DNA of 64,000 nt from Candidatus Omnitrophota bacterium (GTDB taxonomy: Bacteria; Omnitrophota; Gorgyraeia; Zapsychrales; Fredricksoniimonadaceae): NCBI GenBank assembly GCA_015233335.1, contig JADFXX010000001.1, positions 134,302 through 198,301 on the forward strand. The letters run 5' to 3'. Both the position numbers and the translations under genes were made by a program. This document shows, in pieces, positions 19,515-33,884 of the stretch. Positions within the stretch are counted from its first letter, which is position 1, and the number at the start of each line of letters is the position of its first letter. Under the pieces are notes generated by a model. That model was given only the letters and a program-made list of their open reading frames with translations, did no database searches and had not been told where the DNA came from.

Positions 19515-20098
19515 GCTTTATCTCCACCGGGCTTAGATTTTAACCCTTTAAGCCTGCGCAACTTTTCTAAGGTCGAATCAATGCCCTTAGACTCCTTCTC
19601 TTCGACTCCGATATCTCCCAGATTACTTTGCACATCTTCATGAACATAAAGTTTGGAAAGGTCTACTGACTCAAAACCCGCAGCTTCCTGGATCTCACGA
19701 AGCTTGTACTCACGGGCAGGTCCGCTCAAAGTTTTAAGGTCCTTGAGCATTCCCGCGATTTTATCAGAAAGTTTGTCTGAAACAGCATCCAGCGAGCCTT
19801 GCAGGATCGCCGCCATGTGCGTCTTGAATTCCTCGAGTGTCATCCCGGCGGCCGGCGCGGCAGATACCGGCGTCCCGGGTGCCGGCATAACCAACGGCGG
19901 GACAACCGGCGCAACCGGCGCCGATGTTTGGGGTTCTTTTAATCTGTTGGTGATACGAACCGTAACAACATCCAAAGACCCCAAGAATTGTCCCATCAGC
20001 AATTCAGTCTCCATAAGTTCCTGATCAAGGGCATACCGGGACTGCCGAAGCTGATCGATCCTTTGAACCAATGTGATATTCTTATCTTCTAAACTCAT
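19511..20098 (-). CDS. Hypothetical protein with central Pro/Ala/Val-rich segment
   Basis: 195 aa with ATGA overlaps at both ends (translational coupling with the actin-like gene upstream and the HPt gene downstream). No recognisable domain. Confidence 0.4.
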   Translation of the reverse strand: MSLEDKNITLVQRIDQLRQSRYALDQELMETELLMGQFLGSLDVVTVRITNRLKEPQTSAPVAPVVPPLVMPAPGTPVSAAPAAGMTLEEFKTHMAAILQGSLDAVSDKLSDKIAGMLKDLKTLSGPAREYKLREIQEAAGFESVDLSKLYVHEDVQSNLGDIGVEEKESKGIDSTLEKLRRLKGLKSKPGGDKA

Positions 20099-21522
20099 GT
20101 ATTCCCGCCGTTAATTGCGTTAAACAGGCATCCGCGCACAACGCTCGTAAAAGGCTCCTTGGCATGAAGGATATTCCCAAGGGTAAATCCAAATTTAGCA
20201 GATTTTACTTCTTCCTTAACGACATCAATAAAACCGGGCACCATGGACGACCCCCCGGCAAAAACAATATCAACAGGTTCTTTGAAATTGGGAGTGTCCT
20301 TACTTTTGCCGAAAACATGGGCCATATTCTCTATAAGATAATGGATATAATTACGGTAATAGATCGCAATCGCCTGCTCTTCGCGGTTGGCAGGTGTCTT
20401 GATGCTCATGCCGTGTTCTTTAATGGTCGATACACGGGTCGTAGGCACACCCAAAACGGTCGCGGCACTTTTATCAATCCAATCCCCGCCGCGAGTGATC
20501 GAAAACGACAGCACAGGGACAGACTTGAACGCCGCGCAAATATTGACCATGCCCGCACCGCAGGAGACCCCAATACCCGTAAAATCCTGGTCCTCCATCT
20601 CAGAAAGGACAACGGCATACCCCTCGTCGATAACCAAAGCCTTAAAACCGATATTCTTAAGGATCCCCTCAAAAACACCGCGGTGATAGATCGTATCCTG
20701 ATCGCGGTCAATAGGCTGGGCAGGGATAGAAAAACAGCAGACCTCACCATCTTCCCGGGGCTCCCATAAAATGTTCTTGACCAATAATTGAATGATGGGG
20801 ATAGACTCAGCTTCAGATGGGTTAAGGATCCCCATATTCATGGACCGCTGGGTCTCCCGCCCGAAGATATCCGCAAGCTCAAGCGCCATACTTCCTAAGA
20901 CATAAAGCTTATCTTGCAGGGCAACATATTTGATCTTAAGCTTGCCCAACAAATCCTTGGTCGATTGATCACAGCGCACAGAAAGAAAAGCGTTACGTTC
21001 ACTTTTGACAAAGACCCTCTTGCCTTCAACCTCACGGCTGGCCACGATATAGGCCGTTCCCAGATCCAGTCCGACACCGGTCCGGACCGCTGATTTCTTC
21101 CCGCGACTCGCCAAAGTCGGAAGCACAACAGTCGTTGTTTCCTCCTCTTCTGCGGCGGCCGGCTCCTCTAAAGTCTCCCCGATCTGTTCAACCGGCTCCT
21201 CTTCGGTCACATCAGCGACTCTTTCCTTGGGCAAAGGTTCTGGTTCAACACGTAGAAAAACAGGCGGCTTGACATTCTTTCCCTGTGCACGGGCACGGAT
21301 ATAGTCATTGATGGCGCGCAATTTGGCGCGCATTTCCTCAACGGGGACTTCCCGTTGAGAGGAATCTTTTTGCGGCTTATATTCTTCTTCGTCAGATAAC
21401 TGCGGTTTTCGACTCAGGCTGGAATAACTCTTGATCTTGTCATTTATCTTTAATAGTCGCTCTCTGATCTGCTGCAATTCACCTTCGACCACTGACTTGC
21501 CTCTTTCTTTGAGTGCGGCCAC
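20095..21522 (-). CDS. Actin-like ATPase (Mad28-like paralog 2) with ~150-aa acidic/coiled N-terminal extension
   Basis: The C-terminal ~320 aa align by eye with the neighbouring 329-aa protein (DLGTAYIV / DVGTMNLV, EDQDFTGIGVSCGAGMVNI / EDQDFTGIGISAGGGMFNI, FAGGSSMVPGF / CAGGSSMIGGF), which are actin-fold phosphate and adenosine motifs. GTG start without a clear RBS, so the start is uncertain. Confidence 0.7.
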   Translation of the reverse strand: MAALKERGKSVVEGELQQIRERLLKINDKIKSYSSLSRKPQLSDEEEYKPQKDSSQREVPVEEMRAKLRAINDYIRARAQGKNVKPPVFLRVEPEPLPKERVADVTEEEPVEQIGETLEEPAAAEEEETTTVVLPTLASRGKKSAVRTGVGLDLGTAYIVASREVEGKRVFVKSERNAFLSVRCDQSTKDLLGKLKIKYVALQDKLYVLGSMALELADIFGRETQRSMNMGILNPSEAESIPIIQLLVKNILWEPREDGEVCCFSIPAQPIDRDQDTIYHRGVFEGILKNIGFKALVIDEGYAVVLSEMEDQDFTGIGVSCGAGMVNICAAFKSVPVLSFSITRGGDWIDKSAATVLGVPTTRVSTIKEHGMSIKTPANREEQAIAIYYRNYIHYLIENMAHVFGKSKDTPNFKEPVDIVFAGGSSMVPGFIDVVKEEVKSAKFGFTLGNILHAKEPFTSVVRGCLFNAINGGNT

Positions 21523-21552: not shown

Positions 21553-22542
21553 CTATTCAACCTCGCTCAGGCCCGCCAAGAGGCAGCCTCTGGCTGTCGC
21601 ATATAACGGTTCGCTAGCCAACCTCACATCCTTGATAGGAATGGGGAATGACAGCTTCTTAAGTTCTTCTTTAAAGACATCAACAAATCCGCCGATCATG
21701 GATGACCCTCCGGCACAGACAATATTAATGGGTTCCGGGAACTGCGGCATTTGCTCGGCTTTTTCAAATTTATTTTTGATATTGACCAGTGTATAATTGA
21801 TCAAATTGCGGTAATAGATGCAAACCGCTTCTTCTTCGCGGTTGGCTGGTTTGTTGATATTGATCCCTTTTTCCTTAATAGCTGTGGCCCGGTTGACCTT
21901 GATCCCCAAGACCTGTGCCACATTCTTGTCGATCCAGTCACCGGCACGGCTCGTCGCGAAGCTGATGGCCGGGATCGTCTTATAACAAACACAGATATTG
22001 AACATCCCCCCGCCCGCAGAGATGCCGATACCGGTAAAATCCTGGTCTTCCAATTCTGCAAAAACCACCGCGTGCCCTTCATTCATAGGCTTGCCGACAT
22101 AACCCAAATTCTTAAGCGCGCCTGAAATAACGCTTGAGTGATAAACGATATTGAAGTTCGCATCAATAGGATCAGCCGGAACAGAATAATAAACAAGCTG
22201 GTTCTTTTCTTCGGGTTTTCCGAGAACAGCATCGATCAAAAGGCCAAAAATAGGTACAGCATCCGCCTCACCAGGGCTCATGACACCATCCTGCATAGGC
22301 CGGCGCACGGTTTTATTCATAATGTTGGCCAGCTCAAAAGCAGAATCTCCCAAAATATAAACCTTGTTGCCAAGTTCCGCATACTGGACCTTCTGTTTTT
22401 TCAGCATGCTCTTTGTAAATGAATTGGCATCGATATCCAAAAAGGTGTGGCGCATCAATTTAAGCTTGATTTTGCCATCCGCACCCTGCTCAGATCCAAC
22501 CAGGTTCATTGTCCCAACGTCTAACCCTTTGACTTTTCCCAT
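21553..22542 (-). CDS. Actin-like ATPase (Mad28-like paralog 1; ParM/MamK-superfamily)
   Basis: 329 aa. Phosphate-1 GLDVGTMN, phosphate-2 GIGISAGGGM and adenosine CAGGSSMIGG motifs of the actin/Hsp70 fold. Confidence 0.75.
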   Translation of the reverse strand: MGKVKGLDVGTMNLVGSEQGADGKIKLKLMRHTFLDIDANSFTKSMLKKQKVQYAELGNKVYILGDSAFELANIMNKTVRRPMQDGVMSPGEADAVPIFGLLIDAVLGKPEEKNQLVYYSVPADPIDANFNIVYHSSVISGALKNLGYVGKPMNEGHAVVFAELEDQDFTGIGISAGGGMFNICVCYKTIPAISFATSRAGDWIDKNVAQVLGIKVNRATAIKEKGININKPANREEEAVCIYYRNLINYTLVNIKNKFEKAEQMPQFPEPINIVCAGGSSMIGGFVDVFKEELKKLSFPIPIKDVRLASEPLYATARGCLLAGLSEVE

Positions 22543-22554
22543 ACAAAAAACTCC

Positions 22555-23370
22555 TTATTTATGTTTAGCTTTATAATAATGTTCGCGTGCACGGGCACGG
22601 GTATCAGCAAGCATGAGACGGATCTCGTCAAGGCTCCCTTTGCTGTTTTCCAGTTCCCGAATAGCCTGATCCCTTTCGGAAATCACAGAGCCTAGCTCGG
22701 ATTCCGCTGATTCGAGTTTCGCGGCAACAGAGTCCTTTTCATCCTCAAGAAGCGAGACCTGATGGTGCAGGCTCTGGATAGTTTTGTTGGCACTGGAAAG
22801 TTCCAACTCAATTTGTTCGATACGCGTGTCCCTGGCTTCGCATTCTTTTTCAAGGGAGGCGATCTTGTTGTTCCGGTCCTTGATAACAGCTTCACGGGCT
22901 TCCAGCTCTTCTTCAACGGATTTCATTTTACCGACAGACTCTAGCCGTTCATTTTCAAGGAACTCCAGTTCCGAATTAAGTTCTTCCTGAGACACCAGAA
23001 GACCTTTCATCTCTTTAAGTTTGGCCTCCGCGATCGCCGCTTTTTCTTCAGACTTCTGGACGCGCTCTTTAAGCTGCTGGATATCCTTTTCCTGGGCATC
23101 CTTAAGGCTGAAAGAAGCATCAAGCTGTTTTTCCAGATCAGCGATGATTTCAAAAACACTGACCTTCTCCTCTTCGGGAGACATGATATATTTGGTAGAA
23201 TCCTTGATCTGCCTGACCGCAGAACGGATGGCCGCCTTTGGTTCAACAGATGCTGTGCCTGGTCTTTGGGTTGCCGGCTTTAAAGTGGATTGCAGAAGCG
23301 GGTTATCTATGAGCTTACTTCTCCTTGAATCCATGCCCCTACTTACTGGTTGCTTTTCTTGTTTTTCCAT
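22555..23370 (-). CDS. Coiled-coil protein (SMC/intermediate-filament-like heptads)
   Basis: 271 aa, E/K/L-rich, predicted long coiled coil. AAGGAG RBS. The start overlaps the ParA gene end by 32 nt. Confidence 0.5.
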   Translation of the reverse strand: MEKQEKQPVSRGMDSRRSKLIDNPLLQSTLKPATQRPGTASVEPKAAIRSAVRQIKDSTKYIMSPEEEKVSVFEIIADLEKQLDASFSLKDAQEKDIQQLKERVQKSEEKAAIAEAKLKEMKGLLVSQEELNSELEFLENERLESVGKMKSVEEELEAREAVIKDRNNKIASLEKECEARDTRIEQIELELSSANKTIQSLHHQVSLLEDEKDSVAAKLESAESELGSVISERDQAIRELENSKGSLDEIRLMLADTRARAREHYYKAKHK

Positions 23371-24106
23371 CCATAATCTCCTTTGCTAATTGACGGTAAG
23401 CCTCCGCCCCTTTGGAAGTCTTATCATACTTATAGATAGGAAGGTGGGCATTATGGGCCTCTTCTATCTTGATATTCTCTGGGATCACAACCTTAAAGAC
23501 CTTCTTGCCGAAATAATTCCTGATCGCGTCACGCGCTTCGTTCGTCACCACACGCTCGCGGTAACGGGTGATCACAACGCCGGAAATCTCTATATCAGCG
23601 CCAAGGCCGGAGCGGACATTCTCAACGATCTCCTCCAAAAGCTTGATCCCCTTCAGAGAGAAGAATTCAGGACAAATGGGCACGACCAATTCATGACAGG
23701 CGGTCAAAGCGTTGACAGTAAGGAGCCCTAAAGACGGCGGAGCATCCACGATCATATAATCATATTTTAGTTTCTGGGTATAATGATACAGCACCTTTTC
23801 ACGGCCTATATGCTCGTTGATCCGAAGAGTGGCTCCTGAAAGCTCAATATCGCTTGGCACCACATCAATGCCAAAAGCGTCGGAATGCTGGATAACGGTA
23901 CGGATATCCATCTTATCGACGATAACATTATAAATATTGAACTCAAAACGCTGGTTCCCGAAAATAGCCGCCGTTGATGAATATTGGGGGTCCATATCGA
24001 TCAAAATAACCTTTTTACCAGCCCTAGCCAGTTCAGCAGCCAAATTCAAGGATGTCGTGGTCTTGGCAACGCCGCCTTTTTGATTAGCAATACATATCCT
24101 TCTCAT
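23339..24106 (-). CDS. ParA/Soj/MinD-family P-loop ATPase
   Basis: Deviant Walker A NQKGGVAKTTTSLNLA, followed by LIDMDPQ and IVDAPPSLG. Classic ParA layout. Confidence 0.9.
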   Translation of the reverse strand: MRRICIANQKGGVAKTTTSLNLAAELARAGKKVILIDMDPQYSSTAAIFGNQRFEFNIYNVIVDKMDIRTVIQHSDAFGIDVVPSDIELSGATLRINEHIGREKVLYHYTQKLKYDYMIVDAPPSLGLLTVNALTACHELVVPICPEFFSLKGIKLLEEIVENVRSGLGADIEISGVVITRYRERVVTNEARDAIRNYFGKKVFKVVIPENIKIEEAHNAHLPIYKYDKTSKGAEAYRQLAKEIMDGKTRKATSK

Positions 24107-24110
24107 AAAA

Positions 24111-24377
24111 TCACTCTTTCTTTCCCACGTCCAACAAAGCAGTTGCGTCGCTGAACAATGCGCCGATCTGATAGCAGGCCTTATTCAAAAACCCCTTGCG
24201 CGAAGATTTCTTAGGACGACTTTCGATCACCGGACTGTTTTCCAATTTCGTGACCGGAGATGTCATAACCTCGGCAAACCCTTTTTGTAATGCACGGACT
24301 CTCTTGATCCGGGTAGCAGTCTTTTTAAGATGAATGGGTGGTGTTCCCTTTTTCTTGGTCTTTTTAGTTTGCGGCAA
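24111..24377 (-). CDS. Small basic hypothetical protein
   Basis: 88 aa with a K/R-rich N-terminus. TTG start preceded by AAGGAG at 5 nt. Confidence 0.4.
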   Translation of the reverse strand: MPQTKKTKKKGTPPIHLKKTATRIKRVRALQKGFAEVMTSPVTKLENSPVIESRPKKSSRKGFLNKACYQIGALFSDATALLDVGKKE

Positions 24378-24395
24378 AGGGACTCCTTTTTTTAA

Positions 24396-24584
24396 TTAGC
24401 CTTTTGCGTAGCCTTCGTAAAATGATTCCTTGGCATCGGAGAGTATCGAGTTCAACTTATCGCCGGCACCGTCGATTGACCCCTTGACCTTTTTGATCAG
24501 ATCAGGATTCTTTTTCTCCAGTATCTTGTAACCAACAACCCCGACAAAGACAACGGCCACAGCCGCTAATAATCCTTTTACCAT
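24396..24584 (-). CDS. Small membrane-anchored protein, YtxH-like
   Basis: 62 aa. An N-terminal TM helix (LLAAVAVVFVGVVGY) followed by an amphipathic helix. Starts 3 nt after the HEAT-protein stop. Confidence 0.45.
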   Translation of the reverse strand: MVKGLLAAVAVVFVGVVGYKILEKKNPDLIKKVKGSIDGAGDKLNSILSDAKESFYEGYAKG

Positions 24585-24586
24585 AA

Positions 24587-25597
24587 TTACCCCCTGTTTA
24601 ATTGAAGTTTAAATTTAGTCTGATTCTCACGCCACCAAAATCTCCAAGCTTCAATAGCATCATCCTTATCTGTCTTAGAGGAACGGGCTTTGAACCCAAA
24701 ATCCTCACCGGTTATCTTCTTTAACGATACCGCAGCCGTTGACTGGACATCATGGTCCGTATCTGCCAGAAGGGTAATTAATCCTGAAATAGCTTGCGCC
24801 ACTTTAAGAGCACCCGTGATCTGAGCTGCTGCCTTGCGGACACCGGGGTCTGGATCATGCAGTGCCGCAACGGCATGCAGCGAGCATCGCTCACTGAAGC
24901 TCCAGCAAAGGCAGTTTAAGACCTGTCTTCTGACCTCATGGTCACGATCTTTCAAAGCAGAAGCTAAAATATTAAACCCTTCATCGTCATGATACTTGGA
25001 GATGGCCCGCAGTGCCGCCAAACGGATCCCCGTATCCTGATGGCCGATAAAATTCTTGAACACCTCTTTTGTAGTAGCGCCGTCTTCGCTGACAGAGGCC
25101 AAGGCATTTAACAACTCGATGATCTGCAGGGTGTCCTGTTCACGGGAAAGCAGCTCTTCAAGCATCGCGACCGCGGTAGGTCTGGAAAGTTTTTTGATCT
25201 GTCGCAAGGCCTGAATCCGTACGGCCCGGCTGGGTGATTGGATATCTCTGAAATATATTTCTACCTCAACCTCTTCGGTCTTATTGGCAAAAGCCACATT
25301 CTTTAATCCGGCTTGGCGGACAGGAAGAGCCTTCTCAAGAGCCGGCTCGGGCTTTTTCTTTTCGACCACAGGTAGTGATACCACAGGCTCAATACGAGAA
25401 ACCGGCAAAACCGCAGGGGCCACGACCGCAGCCGGAGCTGGGGTCACAGCGACGGTTTGCGCGACCGCCTTTACCACAGCAGGTGTCCGCCTGCCAAAAG
25501 CCAAAAGATAACTAAACTCCTTTTCAACACTTTTGACCGCAACACCCAAAAAATGCGCCAAATCGTTCTGCACACCTGTAGTACTTTTTGTTTGCAT
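24587..25597 (-). CDS. HEAT-repeat protein (Mad23/25/26-like scaffold candidate), module 1
   Basis: 336 aa. The C-terminal half carries repeated PBS-lyase/HEAT units (DTGIRLAALRAI, DRDHEVRRQVLNCL, DPDPGVRKAAAQIT, DTDHDVQSTAAVSL). Confidence 0.7.
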   Translation of the reverse strand: MQTKSTTGVQNDLAHFLGVAVKSVEKEFSYLLAFGRRTPAVVKAVAQTVAVTPAPAAVVAPAVLPVSRIEPVVSLPVVEKKKPEPALEKALPVRQAGLKNVAFANKTEEVEVEIYFRDIQSPSRAVRIQALRQIKKLSRPTAVAMLEELLSREQDTLQIIELLNALASVSEDGATTKEVFKNFIGHQDTGIRLAALRAISKYHDDEGFNILASALKDRDHEVRRQVLNCLCWSFSERCSLHAVAALHDPDPGVRKAAAQITGALKVAQAISGLITLLADTDHDVQSTAAVSLKKITGEDFGFKARSSKTDKDDAIEAWRFWWRENQTKFKLQLNRG

Positions 25598-25647
25598 AAA
25601 ATATACCCGTGGAATAAATGTTATTCCGAATACTAATTTGCTTTTTT

Positions 25648-25675
25648 ATTATAAAGTCAATGAGACAAAAAGCAA
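25648..25675 (-). promoter_or_regulatory. Candidate sigma70-type promoter (TTGCTT-16-TATAAT) upstream of HEAT module 1
   Basis: On the minus strand: -35 TTGCTT (25670..25675), a 16-nt spacer and -10 TATAAT (25648..25653), about 50 nt upstream of the ATG at 25597. Confidence 0.35.
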
Positions 25676-25706
25676 GAAATTATAAAAAATAAATAAAATT
25701 GATCAC

Positions 25707-25741
25707 TGTCATTGCGAGGAGCAAAGCGACGAAGCAATCTC
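25707..25741. repeat. Palindromic intergenic repeat, type A, left arm only
   Basis: tgtcattgcgaggagcaaagcgacgaagcaatctc with no matching right arm. Confidence 0.8.
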
Positions 25742-25758
25742 AATCTAAAAAACTCATT

Positions 25759-25947
25759 TCATAGGGATTGCCTCAATTCGCCCGCAAGAGCAGTCTTCTT
25801 TTTTTCCACATAATCAATAAGCCCCATGACACGCTCAACCTCCAGCTCCAAATCCTTGCTGTGGCCCGCATATTGAAATTTGATCCTATTGCCCCGGTGC
25901 CAAAGGTAAAATTGCCGGCCCAAGGCCTGATAACAACGCTTGTCCAT
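25759..25947 (-). CDS. Small hypothetical protein
   Basis: 62 aa. ATG preceded by AAGGAG. No recognisable motif. Confidence 0.3.
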   Translation of the reverse strand: MDKRCYQALGRQFYLWHRGNRIKFQYAGHSKDLELEVERVMGLIDYVEKKKTALAGELRQSL

Positions 25948-25965
25948 AAACGGCTCTCCTTGCGA

Positions 25966-26292
25966 TCAGCCAAGCAATAATTTAAAGCCCCGTTTTACGG
26001 CGGCGGCCGCTTTGCCGGCGCTATAGGCGCCGACAGCGACAAAGTCCCCTAACTCCACCCCTTTAAGATCAGACCTGATCTGCCGGCTGACACCCTTGAA
26101 CATCGCAACCGTTTCATCCGTGATCTTTTGGGTTTTATGGCCCTGTTGATCCTTATTCTCATCCAAAATAATTTCCGCGACACGCTCGGCGCCCCGCGAT
26201 ACGTTCTGACGAACGCCGGCCATGGATTTTTTAATGATCGCGGCCTTCTGCCTGACCTCTTTTTTCGCTTTAACTTTCAGTGCTTTTACCAT
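25966..26292 (-). CDS. Small basic protein partnered with HEAT module 2
   Basis: I prefer the internal ATG (MVKALKVKAKKE...) at 26292, one nt after the upstream stop. The longer track ORF (to 26457) would overlap the HEAT gene by 164 nt. Composition resembles the 144-aa protein at 27928..28362. Confidence 0.45.
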   Translation of the reverse strand: MVKALKVKAKKEVRQKAAIIKKSMAGVRQNVSRGAERVAEIILDENKDQQGHKTQKITDETVAMFKGVSRQIRSDLKGVELGDFVAVGAYSAGKAAAAVKRGFKLLLG

Positions 26293-26293
26293 A

Positions 26294-27928
26294 TTATTTC
26301 CTGCCTTTTTTCTCTGCAGGCCGCACTTGTGCCCTCTTGGCGGCGGCTGACGTCTGAAGGTCTCGCAATAATCGGGGCTTAATATAGCTTTCTTTGGCCA
26401 ATGCCTTCCAAACCCTGGCCTGACGCTTGCGCTCGGGCAAAGTGGCTGAATAATCATACCCCTGATCTGTCCCGGTCAGGCTGATTAAAGCCTCGATCGT
26501 TTCCTTGCACACCTTAATATTTGAAGATTCCAGTTTAGGGACCAAGGTCACGAAGGCAAAATGATTACCCATAAGCCCAAGTTTGCGGATCGCAACCCGC
26601 GCAACCCCTTCATCAATATCAGCGGACAGACGTGCGATGGCCGAAGCCTCCGGGTCACCTGCCCTATGATCGAGATGATTGACAATAAACCGGCGGATAT
26701 GCGGATCAGGGTCCCTGATAGCTGATACGATGACATGCTTAGCTTCATCAGAACCAAGCTTAACTAACCCCATCATTCCCTGCAATCTGAGAGATGAATC
26801 TTCATCATTAATAAAACGCCGATAAAGATCGACCAAGGTAGGATAATCCAAAACGCTCAGAAGCGATAACAGCTTCCTCTGAAAAAAGATATCCGCTTCA
26901 CGGGTCAACTCATAAAGCAGAGGGACCGCTCTTTTAGGGGCATTGCGAAAGATCGTATGCAAAACCGCCAGCTTATCTTCATCAGAAGTGCTTTCACTTG
27001 AAAGCTTGCGTCCGGCAGTCTCGAGCAGCCCATAGTCGGCCGCGGCTTCATCTGTTTCAACGCTCGGGCTTTCCATAAAATCTTCCTGTTCGGAAGATAA
27101 GGACTCCTCCTCTTGTGTCGATTCTAGGGTCTCTTCTTGCGGCTCATCTTGACTGACAATCTCTTCTTGCGGCTCATCTTGGGGATATTCCGGAACAGAC
27201 GCCGCAGGAGGCAGGCGGTCTTTGAGACTTGGGCCTTCGACACGGGCCTGCTCAAGGTCTTTTTCGTAAACCGTGTTAATGTTCTTAAAAAGAACTACCA
27301 CCTCATCAATAAGGTCATCCACGCGTTTGGTCGTCTGATTGACTTCCTGCTCAAGTTTTTCCAGAAAAGACTTTTCAGCCTTCCACATGGCAACCTCAGG
27401 ATTATCAGCAAAGAATTTCTTTTTCGTTTCCATAATAAGTTTGATCTCCTCCCGCTTCTTGGCCATCAAAAGAATAAGCTTCTGGATCTTTTCATCCAAA
27501 GCAGCCTGATAGGCCGCGGTCCTCTCACCGGTCGTATGCAAAAGACCGGCAGACAGACAGTCGTTCAAATCTTTCTGGACATCAAGGATCCTGTTTTCCG
27601 CCACACGCAAAGCAACGTTCATCTGAGTGTACGGCTCGATCTGCCCCCGCCGGGAAATTTCGGGCGGCCGTGCTTCTTGGGGTTTTTCCTCTTTGACGGG
27701 AGCTTGTCCCTGAACCTTTTTCTCTTTCCTGTCAAAGATCTTCTCTTGGACTACATCCCTGATGAGCCTCTTGGCTGAAACCATTAAGGCCGGATCTTCA
27801 GGATCAAAATAATAAGCAATGGAGCCGGCCTGAATATTCTCATACAAGAGCCTGCCCAATGTGATGAACAAAGAATCAGTTTGGGTACCGCACTCGTTTA
27901 GAAGTTCGCGTTTATTCTTAGTCGGCAT
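26294..27928 (-). CDS. HEAT-repeat protein with N-terminal coiled-coil/acidic region, module 2
   Basis: 544 aa. C-terminal HEAT units (DEDSSLRLQGMMGL, DPDPHIRRFIVNHL, DIDEGVARVAIRKL). The N-terminus is paralogous to the 357-aa protein (LFITLGRLLYENIQAGSIAYYFDPED vs LVFLFGEQIHQLYKSQDINFIFSPEG). Confidence 0.7.
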   Translation of the reverse strand: MPTKNKRELLNECGTQTDSLFITLGRLLYENIQAGSIAYYFDPEDPALMVSAKRLIRDVVQEKIFDRKEKKVQGQAPVKEEKPQEARPPEISRRGQIEPYTQMNVALRVAENRILDVQKDLNDCLSAGLLHTTGERTAAYQAALDEKIQKLILLMAKKREEIKLIMETKKKFFADNPEVAMWKAEKSFLEKLEQEVNQTTKRVDDLIDEVVVLFKNINTVYEKDLEQARVEGPSLKDRLPPAASVPEYPQDEPQEEIVSQDEPQEETLESTQEEESLSSEQEDFMESPSVETDEAAADYGLLETAGRKLSSESTSDEDKLAVLHTIFRNAPKRAVPLLYELTREADIFFQRKLLSLLSVLDYPTLVDLYRRFINDEDSSLRLQGMMGLVKLGSDEAKHVIVSAIRDPDPHIRRFIVNHLDHRAGDPEASAIARLSADIDEGVARVAIRKLGLMGNHFAFVTLVPKLESSNIKVCKETIEALISLTGTDQGYDYSATLPERKRQARVWKALAKESYIKPRLLRDLQTSAAAKRAQVRPAEKKGRK

Positions 27929-28362
27929 TATATTTCCGCAACATCCTTGGTGGCCTTTTCGATCTCTTTTTCAAGATCAGGATCGGCTGATACTTTTTTG
28001 ACGGCTTTCTTGGCGCCACCTTTACGGGCCACAGTCTTCTTTTTAGGCAAAACCACAGCTTGGGCGACTTTAGGCTTGCTCTGCACGTGGCCTTCGCTAA
28101 CCGAATCCATTCCTGCCCTAAATGACTGTCTTATCTCCCGAGTACTTTTCTCAACTGTTTTGGTAACTTGGTCCAACACCACCTCGGCCTTCTCACCGAA
28201 ACTGTCACAAATATCCTGGGTCGCAACCACCACACTTTTAAGCGGTTTCTTTTCAGCGACCCGTCCCAACTCCACGACCTTTTTACACAGAAAACCTGTC
28301 TTGTAAGAAATGGCCTTTAAAAGCCCTTGAAGCTCACTGTTCTTATTTTTTTCTTTGACCAT
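27928..28362 (-). CDS. Small basic protein partnered with HEAT module 3
   Basis: 144 aa. Overlaps the upstream gene by 20 nt and the downstream gene by 1 nt (TAATG), implying translational coupling. Confidence 0.45.
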   Translation of the reverse strand: MVKEKNKNSELQGLLKAISYKTGFLCKKVVELGRVAEKKPLKSVVVATQDICDSFGEKAEVVLDQVTKTVEKSTREIRQSFRAGMDSVSEGHVQSKPKVAQAVVLPKKKTVARKGGAKKAVKKVSADPDLEKEIEKATKDVAEI

Positions 28363-29416
28363 AAGTTTTATTCCTTTTTCTTTCCGGCATAAGTTTCTCT
28401 AATGCCTTCTCAGCCGCTTTTTTAACATCTTCTTCTTTATCAGATAACAAGTTCTTGACCGCCCTCAGGGCCCCTTCAGGCTTGACGATAGAAAGCATCT
28501 CAAGCAGGCTGATACGGACAAAGGAGCTTGGGTCTTCCCACGCCCTTATCGCCTTACTGACCCCTTCCTTACCATAATATATTCCCAAATAGGTCACAGC
28601 AAGCCCTCGAATATGCTGGTCATTGTCCTGAAGAAGGCTTTCGAGGATCTCGCCGTTCCTTGGGCTCACATGACTGCCGAGGCCCTTGATCGCCGCAGTC
28701 CTGACCTTGATGTCAGGATCATTCATGCCCAGCTCAAAGAACCCAGCAGAATCGCCCTCCTTCATACGGGAAATACTCTTCATAACAGCCATGCGAACAA
28801 GAGCGCTCTCATCCTTCATAGCAAATTCGTAGACCTGGCGCAAGACCTCAACCGGAGTTATATGCGCGATTTGCCCGAGGGCAACCTCGCGTTCGCGGAC
28901 AGAACCCATTGAGAACTGCTTAATGTTGCGTTCAAAAAGCCTTCTGTCCGCATCAGAGGTGAACACGGCCGTATCAAGAAGCCGGGTTAAAGTGTCATCA
29001 AGCCTGACTTTTTCTTGGGCAAAAGGAGCGCTTATTGAATTTTCTTCTTCAACAATTTTCTTGACCTCTGATTCAACAACGCTGATCTGCTCCCCGGTCT
29101 GCGACTCTTCGGCCTCTTGCTGTAAGCCCTCTTCCTCATCAAGGGTTGCCTTATCTTCTTGTGCGGCTTCCTCTTGGAGCCAAGCCTCGTCCTCAAGTTC
29201 ATCTTCTTCTAATCCGTCCTCTTGAAGATCGGAAATTCTCTCATCAAGATAGTCCAAAAGCCTTATAAGCCGATCGATCTCCTTTTCTTTAAGACGACCT
29301 TCAGGTGAAAAAATAAAATTTATATCTTGAGATTTATAAAGCTGGTGAATCTGCTCACCAAACAAAAAAACCAGCTTCCTGTGCTTATCTTTAAGTTCCT
29401 GCAGTTGAGGCTCCAT
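28343..29416 (-). CDS. HEAT-repeat protein with acidic coiled N-terminal region, module 3
   Basis: 357 aa. HEAT units (DESALVRMAVMKSI, DPDIKVRTAAIKGL, DNDQHIRGLAVTYL, DPSSFVRISLLEML, DKEEDVKKAAEKAL). Confidence 0.7.
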   Translation of the reverse strand: MEPQLQELKDKHRKLVFLFGEQIHQLYKSQDINFIFSPEGRLKEKEIDRLIRLLDYLDERISDLQEDGLEEDELEDEAWLQEEAAQEDKATLDEEEGLQQEAEESQTGEQISVVESEVKKIVEEENSISAPFAQEKVRLDDTLTRLLDTAVFTSDADRRLFERNIKQFSMGSVREREVALGQIAHITPVEVLRQVYEFAMKDESALVRMAVMKSISRMKEGDSAGFFELGMNDPDIKVRTAAIKGLGSHVSPRNGEILESLLQDNDQHIRGLAVTYLGIYYGKEGVSKAIRAWEDPSSFVRISLLEMLSIVKPEGALRAVKNLLSDKEEDVKKAAEKALEKLMPERKRNKTYGQRKK

Positions 29417-29540: not shown

Positions 29541-30293
29541 TCAGCTTTTAAAAAAATGCCCTAAAAACCCTTTTAATCTTCCGAAGCCCTCTTTCTTATC
29601 GGCCGCCTTATGATGGAGAGTCTCCCCCGCTTCTTCAAAATTCTTCCAGACCGAAATATTCTTGACGACATCCGCATCAAGGGCAATGCTGGCCCCTTCA
29701 CATTCAATGACATAGGTCGGATAATTCTGATGAAGCTTGACGAATACACCGGGCCGAATGCACAGCCCGTCAAGCTTATGGATCTGCTGATCGCTTTTGC
29801 AATTGATATAGGCGATCCGGGCCGATTCCCCAAGCTTAAGATCAGCGAGGGGAATAATAAAACTGGAAGCGCTCTTGATGGCCTGCAGGCAACACTCGCC
29901 TTCCGGTATGGGCATGCCATGGGGGCATTCTTTAGGATGCCCCAAAAGAGTACAGATGCCGTTAACAAGCTCAAGCGAAACCGTATGTTCAAATTCGCAG
30001 GCGATAGACTCAAGGTCACCGCCGCCTAAAACATCGGCTACAAGCCGCTCTGCGAGCCTATGCGCCCTGATCAATTGCCGGGCGCGGTCTTCGCCTTCAG
30101 GGGTGAGTTTAATGGTCGCAGTCTTCGGGTCCCACTCAAGAAGCCCTCGCAGGGAAAGCTCTTCAATGATCTTGGCATCAAAAGAACGCTTCATGGCCTT
30201 CTTAAGAAAATCGATCGAAGTCTCTTTTTGCTCCTTCATATACCAGAGCTGTTCGATATGTTCGTCCTGTTCCTCATTTCTTTCTATAGCCAT
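29541..30293 (-). CDS. DtxR/IdeR/MntR-family metal-dependent transcriptional regulator with C-terminal FeoA/SH3-like domain
   Basis: 250 aa. A winged-helix region, then RAHRLAERLVADVLG and ECPHGMPIP (the DtxR metal-site region), then a C-terminal FeoA-like LKLGESARIAYI...IRPGVFVKL. Confidence 0.85.
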   Translation of the reverse strand: MAIERNEEQDEHIEQLWYMKEQKETSIDFLKKAMKRSFDAKIIEELSLRGLLEWDPKTATIKLTPEGEDRARQLIRAHRLAERLVADVLGGGDLESIACEFEHTVSLELVNGICTLLGHPKECPHGMPIPEGECCLQAIKSASSFIIPLADLKLGESARIAYINCKSDQQIHKLDGLCIRPGVFVKLHQNYPTYVIECEGASIALDADVVKNISVWKNFEEAGETLHHKAADKKEGFGRLKGFLGHFFKS

Positions 30294-31141
30294 ACACGCT
30301 CCATCACTTTCCCTGTCCCCAAACTCAAAACAGCAAACAGCATCAAAGCCAGCATCGAAGGCGAAGAGGAAATCTTCATTCTAAATGTCCCTAAAAACGC
30401 CATGGCCTCATTCCATATCGACGAACCCCGGGAAGTAGCCATAGGCAAGGCATCAATTTCACTCAGCCACGACTTCCACTGGGCATTTTCTAAAACGCTT
30501 AAGATCTCTACATGTTGGGGGCGCTCAAATTGGGCCACCCGGACCTTCCATCCGTCTGTCAAAAGAAGCTCATCAGACATCTCCAAATGATCTTCTGTCA
30601 GTCCTCGAACAAAAATTCTGCTTTCATAATCTGAGACCAGCATGGACTTGTCTTTAAGTATCACGCTGAAAGCTGTGCCCCTGACACCGGCAATCGCAAC
30701 CGGTGTACGCACCTTGAAGGTCGAGCCTTTCTCAAGACCGTCTAATTTAAGCTTGATCTCGCCGCGGTCCATAAAGAGTGTCGTATTCTTGCGGATCCTG
30801 TCGCTTTCAAAGAATACCCGGGAATCAGCGCCGACTCTCATGATATCTTTATAAGCATCGTCATAAGCGATCTCAACAAAAGAACCCTTGCCTGTCGTGA
30901 TCTTATCCCGCGCATTGAGCACAGTACCCAAACTCGGCACGAGTGTTTCTCCTGCGCGTTCAACAATGACACTGCCTTCAAGACGCACGATACGCGCGCG
31001 GTCAGGCGTTTCACTGGTCAAAAAATTGACCGCCAAAAGAACCGCTAAAAGCGCCCCGCCGGCCATTAAAGCATGCGAAGCATTGGAAGTGTAACGCGAA
31101 ATAAAATTAAAGACAATTTGTTTTTCGGCTTTCCAGCTCAT
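30284..31141 (-). CDS. FecR-domain membrane protein
   Basis: 285 aa. An N-terminal TM helix followed by a FecR-like beta-rich domain (RLEGSVIVERAGE...GADSRVFFES...VRTPVAIAGVRGTAFSV). No ECF sigma factor gene is adjacent. Confidence 0.65.
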   Translation of the reverse strand: MSWKAEKQIVFNFISRYTSNASHALMAGGALLAVLLAVNFLTSETPDRARIVRLEGSVIVERAGETLVPSLGTVLNARDKITTGKGSFVEIAYDDAYKDIMRVGADSRVFFESDRIRKNTTLFMDRGEIKLKLDGLEKGSTFKVRTPVAIAGVRGTAFSVILKDKSMLVSDYESRIFVRGLTEDHLEMSDELLLTDGWKVRVAQFERPQHVEILSVLENAQWKSWLSEIDALPMATSRGSSIWNEAMAFLGTFRMKISSSPSMLALMLFAVLSLGTGKVMERVWL

Positions 31142-31156
31142 TCGACCTCTGCCCTG

Positions 31157-33073
31157 TTAGCGACCGATCATAAAAACCAGTGCCCAATTAAGCGCTCCCG
31201 CCAATATAAATGATGAAATAAAAATCATCGCAGTCATCGCGATTGCGGTCTTCAATCCCATTTCCCTTGCGATCGCAGTGACATTCGCCACACAAGGAAA
31301 AGAGATGGTTGTCACAACTACAGCCACGATCGATTGAATATAGTTTAATGCCCCCGCGTTGACCATCTTAAGAATGAGGCCCGCAGCGGCTTCACGCCGT
31401 GCAAACGCCAGTAGAAATACATCGACAATGTCCCGTGGCAATCCCATCCATCCGACAATGAGAGGTGTTAACATCTGCTTGATCAAATTAAGCAATCCGG
31501 TTTTCTCAAAAACAAAAAGACCGGCCGCTGATAACAAAAAGATCGGTAAAGCTTCCTGAAGAAAATCAGTCACACGATGATAAGTCTTTCGAAAGACAGC
31601 TTTCATGCTGGGAAAACGCATAGGAGGAATGACCTGAATAAAAGAGCTTGCCTCTTTGGTCTTAATGATCTTGTTAAGGAACATCCCTGCTCCCATTTCA
31701 CAAAATCCCAGCATCGCAAAAACGATCAGAAATGCGCTGATCCCCACCTTAGCCAGAATGGCCATGGAAATGCCCAGTTGCGCGGAACAAGGAATTGCAA
31801 AAGCGATCAGGAAAACGGCGATGAACTTCTCTTTTGGGACCGTCAGGCTCCGGGCACTCAAAGTCGCCATAGTTTTACAGCCGAATCCCAATACCAGCGA
31901 AGTGACTGCATTGCCCGGAATCCCGATCTTAGCAAATACCCTCTTGGAAAATACCGTAAAATTCGTTATATACCCGCTGTCCTCAAAACAACCAAAGATA
32001 AAAAAGAACACCGAAAGGATAGGAAGCACTGTGCCTATGGCATTAAAAAGTCCCAACGTCAAGATTCCGTAATCACCGATCAAAAGGTCCTTCCAAAACG
32101 GGGGCAGCGGGAATGATGATATCAAACCGGTCACGGGAAAAACAAGCAAAAGATCAAGAAATTTATCAAGCGCACCGGAAATATAGACAACGCTCAGATA
32201 AACGACGGCCATAAAAACCAAAAAGATCGGGATCCCCCAAAAAGGGTCCCGGCTGGCCCGGGTAAAATGATAGGAAAACCCCTGATACGTCATCTTTTGT
32301 TTACGGATGACCAAGCTCGCAATATGGTCGACCCAGCGGCTGCGCCTGTCAATAAAAACCTGCCGGATATTCCCCTTTAACTGCCGTCGTATCTTGTTGG
32401 TCTCAAGATGGATGAGGGCGGCTCTTGGAGCTCCATACTTTTTTTCAAGAAACTTCTCCACAAAAGGGTCAGTCAAAAGGAGAAGGCTTGCGATCTTGTA
32501 TTTGAATTCCAAATCAAAAGGCAATTCAGATGCCAATTCAATAATCGACTGCTCGATGGCCGCGCCATACTTAAGGTCCAGAGCGCCTTTACGTGCATGA
32601 CCAATGGCATCCTTGATCTCCTCTTTTCCCAACCCTCGCGAAGCTATCGATTCGACCACCGCGACGCCCAGCATCCCCTCAAGCGCCTCTGAATCGATCC
32701 AAACCCCTTTGCGCGTCGCTTCATCCATGGAATTAAGGACAATGACCATCGGAGTCTCTAATTCCAAAAGTTCAGCGGTCAACAGCAAGGATTGCTTGTA
32801 TTGGCTGGCATCAATGCATTGAACAATAATATCCGGCGCTTCGGCTAAGATCATGTCGCGCACCGCGATCTCTTCTTCAGAATGGATATAAAGACAATGC
32901 AGGCCGGGTGTATCGATGATTTCGTAATGCTTGTTGTTGATTGTTGTGACCGACCGTCTCATTTCAACGGTCGTGCCCGGATAATTCGCTACAATATTGT
33001 ATTCGCCGGTGAGATTATTGAAGATCTGTGTTTTGCCCGTGTTAGGGATCCCAATGAGTGCGACTTTTTTCAT
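31157..33073 (-). CDS. feoB: Ferrous iron transporter FeoB (copy 1, inside the magnetosome region)
   Basis: G-domain VALIGIPNTGKTQIFNNLTG...DTPG followed by a polytopic gate region. I prefer the ATG at 33073 (MKKVALIG) to the track TTG at 33151, which overlaps the upstream gene. Confidence 0.9.
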   Translation of the reverse strand: MKKVALIGIPNTGKTQIFNNLTGEYNIVANYPGTTVEMRRSVTTINNKHYEIIDTPGLHCLYIHSEEEIAVRDMILAEAPDIIVQCIDASQYKQSLLLTAELLELETPMVIVLNSMDEATRKGVWIDSEALEGMLGVAVVESIASRGLGKEEIKDAIGHARKGALDLKYGAAIEQSIIELASELPFDLEFKYKIASLLLLTDPFVEKFLEKKYGAPRAALIHLETNKIRRQLKGNIRQVFIDRRSRWVDHIASLVIRKQKMTYQGFSYHFTRASRDPFWGIPIFLVFMAVVYLSVVYISGALDKFLDLLLVFPVTGLISSFPLPPFWKDLLIGDYGILTLGLFNAIGTVLPILSVFFFIFGCFEDSGYITNFTVFSKRVFAKIGIPGNAVTSLVLGFGCKTMATLSARSLTVPKEKFIAVFLIAFAIPCSAQLGISMAILAKVGISAFLIVFAMLGFCEMGAGMFLNKIIKTKEASSFIQVIPPMRFPSMKAVFRKTYHRVTDFLQEALPIFLLSAAGLFVFEKTGLLNLIKQMLTPLIVGWMGLPRDIVDVFLLAFARREAAAGLILKMVNAGALNYIQSIVAVVVTTISFPCVANVTAIAREMGLKTAIAMTAMIFISSFILAGALNWALVFMIGR

Positions 33074-33128
33074 CCTCTTCACTTCAGGGACATTCAGGAT
33101 GCGGTTGGGCTTACTTTCCACAGGACTC

Positions 33129-33884
33129 CTAACGGGCTTTATGTTCCCCAAACAAATTCTTTAAAAACTGCATTTCGCCGATGGGCTTATCCTTTTCTTT
33201 TTCTATAGGCTCTTCTTCATCAATAATTTTCGCCTTGATCGCCTGGTTGACTTCAGCTGTTATGTTTTCTCCCTGTGTTGTAAAAGAGACCGGTTCTTCT
33301 ACAGTCGCCTTAGTTTCAACCGCCGCCGCTGAAGCAAAATATTTTTTTGTTTTGTCAACGCCGACCCCGCGCAAATGGAAGGTGATCTTAAAATTCTTCC
33401 ACTCAAAAACGCGGTCGAGTTCAGCCTTAAGCACTTGCTCGATCTCATTTAACTCTTCATAAATGGAGGAAACGCCGTCAAGGCCGATCGCAACGAGGAT
33501 CTCAATATTATCCCCAGGGCCGTGTTCAAATTCAATGCCCACGTCAGACGCGCAGGGGCTTTGTTCGATGATCTGAAGGATAAAACTCCTGATCGCCTTC
33601 TCCGGGATACTCAAAGGCTTACCGTCTTTTTCTACGTTGATCACATGAGGGGCAGGTCTTGTCCTTGCAGAAAAGATCAATAAAATAAACCCTAAAACAA
33701 CAAAGAAGGCCCCCACCCCTAAAACAGTCGTCAGAGATCTGGGAGTTGCCAGTAAATTATTGTAAAACTCCATAAGCTTGTCAGAAGGCAGACGCCCCAA
33801 ACCCACAGCCACAAGCACAAGCCCCTCCAGCATGCATAAGCCGGCGGCAATCATCATGAACACCTTGATAAAAAATGATTTCAT
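33129..33884 (-). CDS. Membrane protein with Asp23/AmaP-like domain
   Basis: 251 aa. Two N-terminal TM helices followed by a region resembling alkaline-shock Asp23/AmaP proteins (LSIPEKAIRSFILQIIEQSP...IEILVAIGL). Assigned by eye, weak. Confidence 0.4.
   Translation of the reverse strand: MKSFFIKVFMMIAAGLCMLEGLVLVAVGLGRLPSDKLMEFYNNLLATPRSLTTVLGVGAFFVVLGFILLIFSARTRPAPHVINVEKDGKPLSIPEKAIRSFILQIIEQSPCASDVGIEFEHGPGDNIEILVAIGLDGVSSIYEELNEIEQVLKAELDRVFEWKNFKITFHLRGVGVDKTKKYFASAAAVETKATVEEPVSFTTQGENITAEVNQAIKAKIIDEEEPIEKEKDKPIGEMQFLKNLFGEHKAR

Follow-up and report, generated by a model that had tools for sequence, protein, structure and literature searches.

What are three consecutive HEAT-repeat genes, each followed closely by genes for small basic proteins, doing in the genome of an Omnitrophota bacterium? 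They lie at 24.1–29.4 kb of the stretch analysed here (the window, 64,000 nucleotides (nt) of the 212-kb contig JADFXX010000001.1), which comes from a Candidatus Omnitrophota metagenome-assembled genome (MAG), and they carry locus tags HQL14_00690 to 00725. The NCBI open reading frame (ORF) calls are identical, and annotate the block just as 'HEAT repeat domain-containing protein' or 'hypothetical protein'. Every gene in the region is on the minus strand. In transcription order the block reads HEAT1-sA-HEAT2-sB-sC and HEAT3-sD-sE. On its 5′ side are homologues of MamA (TPR), MamQ (LemA), a PDZ-CitMHS fusion, MamO-Cter (TauE), a PDZ protein, FeoB, a FecR-domain protein and a DtxR-FeoA fusion, and on its 3′ side a ParA/MinD-type ATPase, a coiled-coil protein of 271 amino acids (aa) and two actin-like proteins of the Pfam Volactin family. 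Since MamA-, MamQ- and MamO-Cter-like, FeoB, ParA-like and Mad28-like genes flank it, the region is part of a magnetosome gene cluster, as a preliminary description made from the sequence alone had proposed for the HEAT genes.

The block and the downstream ParA, coiled-coil and two actin-like genes would together represent, in Omnitrophota, the module with which deep-branching magnetotactic bacteria organise their magnetosome chains; a lineage-specific expansion of Mad23-type scaffolds would be combined in it with small basic proteins acting as co-translated adaptors. We give this interpretation a probability of about 0.5. The set of HEAT and small proteins probably has a part in ordering the chain of magnetic particles, and would be a variant of the Mad23 system specific to this lineage, not a new kind of machine.

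HEAT proteins and their likeness to Mad23

The seven ORFs of the preliminary description (three HEAT and four small) were all found on the minus strand at the coordinates given here and below. HEAT1 (357 aa, 28343..29416), HEAT2 (544 aa, 26294..27928) and HEAT3 (336 aa, isoelectric point (pI) 9.1, 24587..25597) each pass the 27.7-bit cutoff of Pfam HEAT_2 (PF13646), with 66.3 bits (3e-18), 40.4 bits (3.7e-10) and 72.2 bits (4.5e-20), respectively, which bears out their naming as HEAT-repeat proteins. None of the three has a hydrophobic (transmembrane) segment in its hydropathy profile. HEAT1 consists of a two-helix N-domain (residues 2–67), a disordered acidic linker (~70–137), a solenoid (139–352) and a basic tail. 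HEAT2 has an N-terminal segment, a heptad-rich helical region (~144–227), an acidic segment (~241–300), a solenoid (~320–520) and a basic tail, and HEAT3 a short conserved N-terminus, a P/A/V-rich linker and a solenoid with the end ITGEDFGF...WRFWWRENQ.

An AlphaFold2 model of HEAT1 (predicted local distance difference test, pLDDT, 78.7 overall, >90 in the solenoid and <50 in the linker) has N-terminal helices at residues 2–28 and 38–67 and a solenoid of about 14 helices. Its closest solved structures by Foldseek are engineered alphaRep/HEAT and armadillo binders, peptide binders among them, a result that puts the modelled fold among generic binders of proteins and peptides. In an alignment of 19 HEAT1 relatives, a conserved N-domain of ~65 residues is followed by a hypervariable D/E-rich linker, ranging from roughly 50 to >200 residues, a conserved solenoid of ~200 residues and a basic tail. 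Searches of Pfam and PDB with the N-domain returned zero relatives, and it is defined here as a new N-terminal domain. The HEAT1 family comprises 21 proteins and the HEAT3 family 22, and in both all organism-named members are from Omnitrophota. The best match beyond the HEAT3 family is a generic HEAT protein from a non-magnetosome context, with a drop in significance from 1e-78 to 8e-16.

The solenoids of the three proteins are mutually related, with hhalign probabilities of 97.5–99.3% (HEAT2 against HEAT3, 99.3%; against HEAT1, 97.5%). A paralogous N-terminus and an acidic coiled segment had been described as common to HEAT1 and HEAT2, and the second part of this claim fared better than the first. 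Acidic segments, with a net charge of -10 to -13 per 30 residues, are present in both and absent from HEAT3 by charge profile, and a heptad scan, a crude method, detected coiled-coil-like stretches at residues 39–74 and 101–130 of HEAT1 and at 144–171 and 181–227 of HEAT2, and none in HEAT3. The N-termini of HEAT1 and HEAT2, however, share 27% identity over 83 aa with an E-value of 0.006 (BLASTP), and align in register by hhalign with a probability of 33–52% (E 1.5e-4 to 4e-4), while the N-terminus of HEAT3 is unrelated to either. Judged from these alignments the HEAT1–HEAT2 N-terminal likeness is weak, and clear paralogy is confined to the solenoids.

In the open literature, HEAT repeats in magnetosome clusters are mentioned for Mad23 alone. 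The Mad23 of Desulfovibrio (Solidesulfovibrio) magneticus RS-1 (DMR_40890) has a small coiled-coil region and a HEAT domain but no transmembrane segment; late magnetosomes are enriched in it, cells from which it is deleted have scattered magnetosomes, and in two-hybrid assays it interacts with the small protein Mad10 and the coiled-coil protein Mad25 (PMC12748827). HEAT1 and HEAT2 match this published architecture (a short coiled coil plus HEAT repeats, with no predicted transmembrane segment) as well as the genomic setting, a magnetosome cluster with MamA, MamQ and MamO-Cter homologues upstream and the chain-organisation type genes (ParA-like, coiled-coil, Mad28-like) downstream. HEAT3, having zero heptad signal, lacks the coiled-coil feature. 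The likeness to Mad23 of RS-1 and Nitrospirota thus lies in a soluble HEAT protein of a magnetosome cluster, with a coiled-coil region, encoded beside coiled-coil and actin-like chain genes. There are also clear differences: three paralogues occur here and one there, HEAT1 and HEAT2 have long acidic disordered linkers, and the genes next to them encode small basic proteins instead of the coiled-coil proteins Mad24–26. In Nitrospirota, mad23 is directly downstream of mamO-Cter (PMC12748827, PMC8353452); HEAT1 also lies downstream of a MamO-Cter (TauE-type) homologue, but six genes intervene.

The binding of a HEAT protein to a small protein, put forward in the preliminary description as an idea not pointed out before, is not entirely new, in view of the published Mad23–Mad10 and Mad23–Mad25 interactions (PMC12748827). 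That network has the same logic, a HEAT scaffold plus a small protein with a coiled-coil gene nearby; however, mad10 is not adjacent to mad23, whereas the small genes here adjoin the HEAT genes, and sA and sB are without a detectable coiled coil in the heptad scan. The small ORFs were considered as counterparts of Mad24, Mad25 or Mad26 and rejected: the heptad maximum was 0.42–0.44 (sA and sB scanned) against 0.70 for the 271-aa protein, and no SMC-like match was found in sA–sE. Of the mad-like scaffold set suggested earlier, the HEAT proteins with Mad23 architecture are retained and the small ORFs, not being Mad24–26-type coiled coils, are not.

More distant parallels can be drawn with two other systems. 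In Magnetospirillum, the acidic adaptor MamJ, which joins magnetosomes to MamK, also has an acidic, largely disordered segment in a presumed connector of magnetosome and filament, and adaptors of a 'MamJ-like' sort have been proposed to exist in deep-branching magnetotactic bacteria (PMC10653835); the sequence of MamJ is unrelated, however, and the acidic segment here is a linker inside a HEAT scaffold. The phycobilisome-lyase-type HEAT proteins (CpcE/F, CpeY, NblB), alphaRep proteins and designed armadillo binders have the same fold of short HEAT-like repeats, the concave surface of which binds proteins or extended basic peptides. The HEAT proteins of the window score far under the family cutoffs of CpcE/F, CpeY and NblB and have no phycobilisome context, so that these are fold-level analogues only.

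Small basic proteins and a shared peptide

Most junctions in the block are very short. HEAT1 and sA overlap by 20 nt and sA and HEAT2 by 1 nt, HEAT2 and sB are separated by 1 nt, sB and sC by 18 nt, HEAT3 and sD by 2 nt, sD and sE by 18 nt and sE and the ParA gene by 4 nt, and the ParA and coiled-coil genes overlap by 32 nt. The only long gap, of 161 nt (25598..25758), lies between sC and HEAT3. Stop and start codons that overlap or abut in this way are consistent with coupled translation. The tight placement of small genes behind the HEAT genes had been noted earlier, and stands (-20 to +18 nt), but sC, a conserved 62-aa gene 18 nt after sB, had been overlooked. All five small ORFs are real genes, as they are called identically by NCBI, have orthologues in many MAGs (31–90% identity) and show ratios of non-synonymous to synonymous substitution (dN/dS) indicative of constraint. 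All eight genes of the block are under purifying selection, with dN/dS of 0.04–0.28 against the closest MAG, at a synonymous divergence (dS) that is ~1 or saturated.

The small proteins sA–sE are all basic (pI 9.3–10.5), and one, sD, has a transmembrane helix, in keeping with their earlier characterization as K/R-rich or membrane-anchored. The first, sA (144 aa, pI 9.7, 27928..28362, dN/dS 0.12), begins within the 3′ end of HEAT1 and is built of a conserved N-terminal block, a K/A/P-rich linker that varies, and a peptide at the very C-terminus, DLEKEIEKATKDVAEI, which is conserved too. Its orthologues range from 128 to 313 aa and retain both conserved ends, the versions of ~300 aa included. 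The start of sB (108 aa, pI 10.2, 25966..26292, dN/dS 0.28, 11 orthologues) is 1 nt past the HEAT2 stop, and sC (62 aa, pI 9.5, 25759..25947) has the core SKDLELEVER..GLIDYVEKKK and is conserved in 11 loci. In sD (62 aa, 24396..24584, dN/dS 0.04, 13 orthologues) an N-terminal hydrophobic helix (19-residue hydropathy 2.26) precedes an invariant C-terminal end, KESFYEGYAKG; a basic stretch comes after the transmembrane helix, which suggests that the tail is cytoplasmic. Last, sE (88 aa, pI 10.5, TTG start, 24111..24377, dN/dS 0.17, 10 orthologues) is basic at the N-terminus and conserved in a C-terminal block, GFLNKACYQIGALFSDATALL, with the family pattern GFLN..C[YF]..G..FSD.

No relatives of sA–sE were detected in Pfam, NCBIfam or PDB, and no homology was found among them, every pair having an hhalign probability below 10% (0.0–8.1%). 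Because of this, sA–sE are, as far as profile comparison can tell, five unrelated families and not copies of one partner. The earlier notion of a triplicated two-gene module is therefore abandoned: the small partners are non-homologous, and the homology of the large partners, described above, is strong only in their solenoids. A possible link between HEAT1 and sA was also sought in their overall properties. HEAT1 is always acidic (net charge -16 to -37) and sA always basic (+12 to +29), with no covariation of charge between them. A correlation of their lengths (rho 0.96, n=7) was dropped as evidence of pairing because it is not robust: start codons are approximate, the lineages are non-independent, and three divergent loci would weaken rho.

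What four of the five small families (sA, sB, sD and sE) do have in common is a short motif, [S/A/C]-[F/Y]-x-x-G-x-hydrophobic, located in the most conserved segment of each. There are two copies in sA, SYKTGFL at residues 19–25 (28288..28308), which is conserved in orthologues, and SFRAGMD at residues 80–86 (28105..28125), which resembles the C-terminal ESFYEGY of sD. The others are AYSAGKA of sB (26008–26028), the copy within KESFYEGYAKG of sD (24405–24425) and that within the conserved block of sE (24156–24176). The motif is absent from HEAT1, HEAT2, HEAT3 and the coiled-coil protein, and shuffling gave a chance of 1–4% for its occurrence per protein. The minus strand of the 64-kb window yields 11 matches in ORFs of 50 aa or more, four of them in sA, sB, sD and sE; compared with the remaining ORFs of the window, the motif is ~25-fold enriched in the four small families. 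The best local hhalign matches between the small families, though non-significant, coincide with the motif segments.

The motif may be a common docking peptide, and the evidence for it overall is suggestive only. A weaker form of the two-gene idea may still hold, in which the small basic proteins behind every HEAT gene include at least one with a common short peptide. It could be speculated further that sA, sB, sD and sE form an adaptor set that docks via [S/A/C]-[F/Y]-x-x-G onto the HEAT solenoids or the HEAT1-type N-domain, with sA adding a conserved C-terminal DLEKEI helix, and that this modular scaffold–adaptor code may operate also outside magnetosome clusters, in a distant HEAT1-like lineage described below. 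We consider this extended proposal unlikely. If true, such a code would wire membrane, crystal and actin-like filaments together in Omnitrophota magnetosomes.

Conservation across loci and competing explanations

Comparison contigs were found via HEAT1 homologues, a genome scan based on the Mad28-like protein and further look-ups. The 12-gene order HEAT1-sA-HEAT2-sB-sC-HEAT3-sD-sE-ParA-coiled coil-actin-actin is shared by at least 13 loci, drawn from different MAGs and metagenomes of Omnitrophota; one MAG with this order carries the label Planctomycetia. Divergent loci are included, with identity of the Mad28-like protein down to 71% and, in L092, a GC content of 36%. In all close or moderately divergent magnetosome clusters of Omnitrophota that were examined, HEAT and small genes stay side by side, and in two divergent loci (L015 and L089) the block is away from feoB/dtxR yet intact, so it moves as a unit. 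Where the block splits, the split falls between modules and not within them. This is the case in MAG UBA10174, where it is divided exactly at sC|HEAT3 (L003/L004 versus L008), the same spot as the 161-nt gap of the window, and the coincidence suggests that the gap is the boundary of two transcription units. A scan for sigma-70 promoters and terminators was uninformative on this boundary, since sites were no commoner than in shuffled sequences.

A number of observations weigh against reading the block as a set of Mad23-type scaffolds with dedicated adaptors. The pairing of HEAT and small genes, widely conserved as expected, is not as strict as was proposed: in L087, sA and sB adjoin a 115-aa HEAT1 N-domain protein without HEAT repeats, and in L016 a HEAT3-like gene sits between two actin genes, without sD or sE. 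Adjacency that is conserved among related genomes can in any case be inherited synteny. A distant HEAT1-like lineage (P0193, P0195 and L090) occurs in a seemingly non-magnetosome setting. The motif pattern was set post hoc from sA, sB and sE, the match in sD and the second copy in sA being found later. Finally, word-indexed and exhaustive searches with HEAT1 and HEAT3 gave, among the best 150 matches listed, none named Mad23 or from Nitrospirota or Desulfobacterota; those named by organism were all from Omnitrophota, many were unnamed, and the rest were generic giant HEAT proteins, which dominate the exhaustive profile search after ~20 true family representatives. A search with the MamO-Cter homologue as a synteny anchor likewise gave proteins of Omnitrophota type, and no Nitrospirota entry, among the best 120 matches listed.

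The main rival explanation is that the small proteins have functions of their own, unconnected with the HEAT proteins. They might belong to the magnetosome membrane or be associated with the crystal, as many small Mam, Mms and Mad proteins are, the adjacency then being that of an operon inherited as a block. The five families are mutually unrelated, sD has its own transmembrane helix, sA and sB persist in L087 with no adjacent HEAT solenoid, the HEAT3-like gene of L016 lacks small partners, and all 12 genes are equally syntenic, so that adjacency does not single out the pairs. Such independence is nevertheless somewhat unlikely, as it would leave unexplained the overlap or abutment of stop and start codons specifically at HEAT-to-small-gene junctions, the splits between rather than within modules, and the motif common to four families; the most divergent HEAT1-like lineage, too, keeps an ORF of ~200 aa, with no Pfam match, 17–18 nt downstream.

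The two other explanations concern the HEAT proteins themselves. They could be earlier sorting or recruitment factors that bring magnetosome proteins, the small basic ones included, to the magnetosome membrane, rather than chain linkers. This role has been proposed for Mad23 in a review (PMC9840458), and it would suit the generic cargo-binding and adaptor character of HEAT solenoids, the membrane-anchored sD beside HEAT3, and the position of the block, which in the window comes straight after genes for iron uptake and regulators. Genetics and proteomics of RS-1, however, put Mad23 at late, chain-forming stages (PMC12748827), and in every locus the HEAT3 module shares an operon with the genes for ParA, the coiled-coil protein and the actin-like proteins, both of which make a sorting role decidedly unlikely. 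That they are ordinary housekeeping HEAT proteins of the phycobilisome-lyase or NblB type, which happen to lie near magnetosome genes, is very improbable. The matches to NblB, CpcE and CpeY in NCBIfam that might suggest it score 18–33 bits, far below the curated cutoffs of 300–600, and these families are excluded on that basis. In its favour is also the distant HEAT1-like lineage outside an obvious magnetosome cluster (P0193/P0195/L090). That lineage is the one exception among readable neighbourhoods of HEAT1 and HEAT3 family members; that all others are magnetosome clusters speaks against it, as do the restriction of organism-named HEAT1 and HEAT3 proteins to Omnitrophota and the sharp drop to the first generic match beyond the HEAT3 family.

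If the block does encode Mad23-type scaffolds with co-translated adaptors, the HEAT proteins would be protein-binding platforms that tie individual magnetosomes into chains or subchains, as Mad23 does, their N-terminal helices serving for self-association or for association with coiled-coil proteins. The small basic proteins would be lineage-specific adaptors made in stoichiometric amounts with the scaffold: sD could anchor in the magnetosome or cell membrane and present its cytoplasmic ESFYEGY tail, and sA, sB and sE could each bring the scaffolds basic stretches and a peptide of similar type, [S/A/C]-[F/Y]-x-x-G. Complexes formed in this way would link the particles to products of the genes just downstream (ParA-like ATPase, coiled-coil protein and Mad28-like filaments). 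Chain building in deep-branching magnetotactic bacteria has become experimentally tractable only recently and in one organism, RS-1, and Omnitrophota are uncultured. The present comparison does not reveal a new kind of system. It adds an expanded Mad23-like scaffold set carried by Omnitrophota clusters, five conserved families of small partners and a new domain at the N-terminus. It further adds a candidate docking motif common to four of these families, and variants found in nature, namely a protein reduced to the N-domain and a possible sB–sC fusion. Together these give a comparative handle on the diversification of adaptors between magnetosome and cytoskeleton.

Flanking genes and natural variants

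Immediately downstream of sE is the gene for the ParA/MinD-type ATPase (255 aa, 23339..24106; Pfam AAA_31 2.8e-49, CbiA 2e-27), which is 89–95% identical in related MAGs and in place and type would fit Mad29. The 271-aa coiled-coil protein (22555..23370) has weak matches to SMC, tropomyosin and crescentin rods and a positive heptad scan at residues 78–235, and is a candidate counterpart of the coiled-coil proteins of Mad24/25/26 type. The first actin-like protein (329 aa, 21553..22542; Pfam Volactin 3.8e-78) has the predicted actin fold and, as ISAGGG, the S-x-G-x-G phosphate-2 motif, the Ser of which is a trait of Mad28 (PMC10653835); by its sequence it is Mad28-like. It is 37–44% identical over its full length to volactin-family proteins of archaea (Haloferax, Methanosarcina, Methanolobus and Archaeoglobaceae), and a genome scan with it returned Omnitrophota loci and next archaeal volactins, with no Desulfobacterota Mad28. 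The second actin-like gene, also of the Volactin family (475 aa, 20095..21522; Pfam Volactin 2.1e-82), encodes a longer paralogue with a 150-residue N-terminal extension and invariably comes next after the first in related loci.

On the upstream side, a 600-aa fusion of PDZ and a CitMHS/ArsB-type permease (36155–37957, minus strand) lies between the MamQ-like and MamO-Cter-like genes, a position that is kept in all Omnitrophota clusters seen (L001, L003, L087, L088 and L091). The genes for FeoB, the FecR-domain protein and the DtxR-FeoA fusion (29541–33151, minus strand) are directly upstream of HEAT1. The FeoB/DtxR set is separated from the HEAT block in L015 and L089, and in L087 what follows this set is a two-component system instead. 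In a complete Omnitrophota genome (L091), there is no HEAT block near the core cluster.

Several variants of the block were seen among the comparison loci. In L087 (19633–19980), the 115-aa protein consists of the N-domain and a short acidic tail; a clear sA orthologue comes next, and immediately behind it an sB-like protein whose N-terminus is poly-(KVKRKV). The HEAT1-type N-domain is therefore an independent module. The HEAT1-like protein of the distant lineage (P0193/P0195/L090:799-1962) retains the N-domain, acidic linker and solenoid, and its neighbours are an ETF-QO-like gene, PNPOx, VIT1 and an integrase, with no mam genes; metagenome scans for this lineage yielded one 2-kb contig, which lacks the partner gene. 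A single frame (4063–4626, 188 aa) spans both sB and sC on L092, a contig of low coverage and high AT content (36% GC), either as a natural fusion or by an assembly error. The HEAT1 orthologue of the same contig (514–1671) has an acidic linker made of a long tandem repeat (TE.TENAVDEHETEEPE, ~9 copies), showing fast linker expansion. Lastly, the sE orthologues of L002 (15904–16278), L008, L011, L014 and L092 contain an insertion, KKCSVKGCR...G.C.KH, which has a zinc-knuckle-like CxxC...CxxH arrangement and is absent from the sE of the window.

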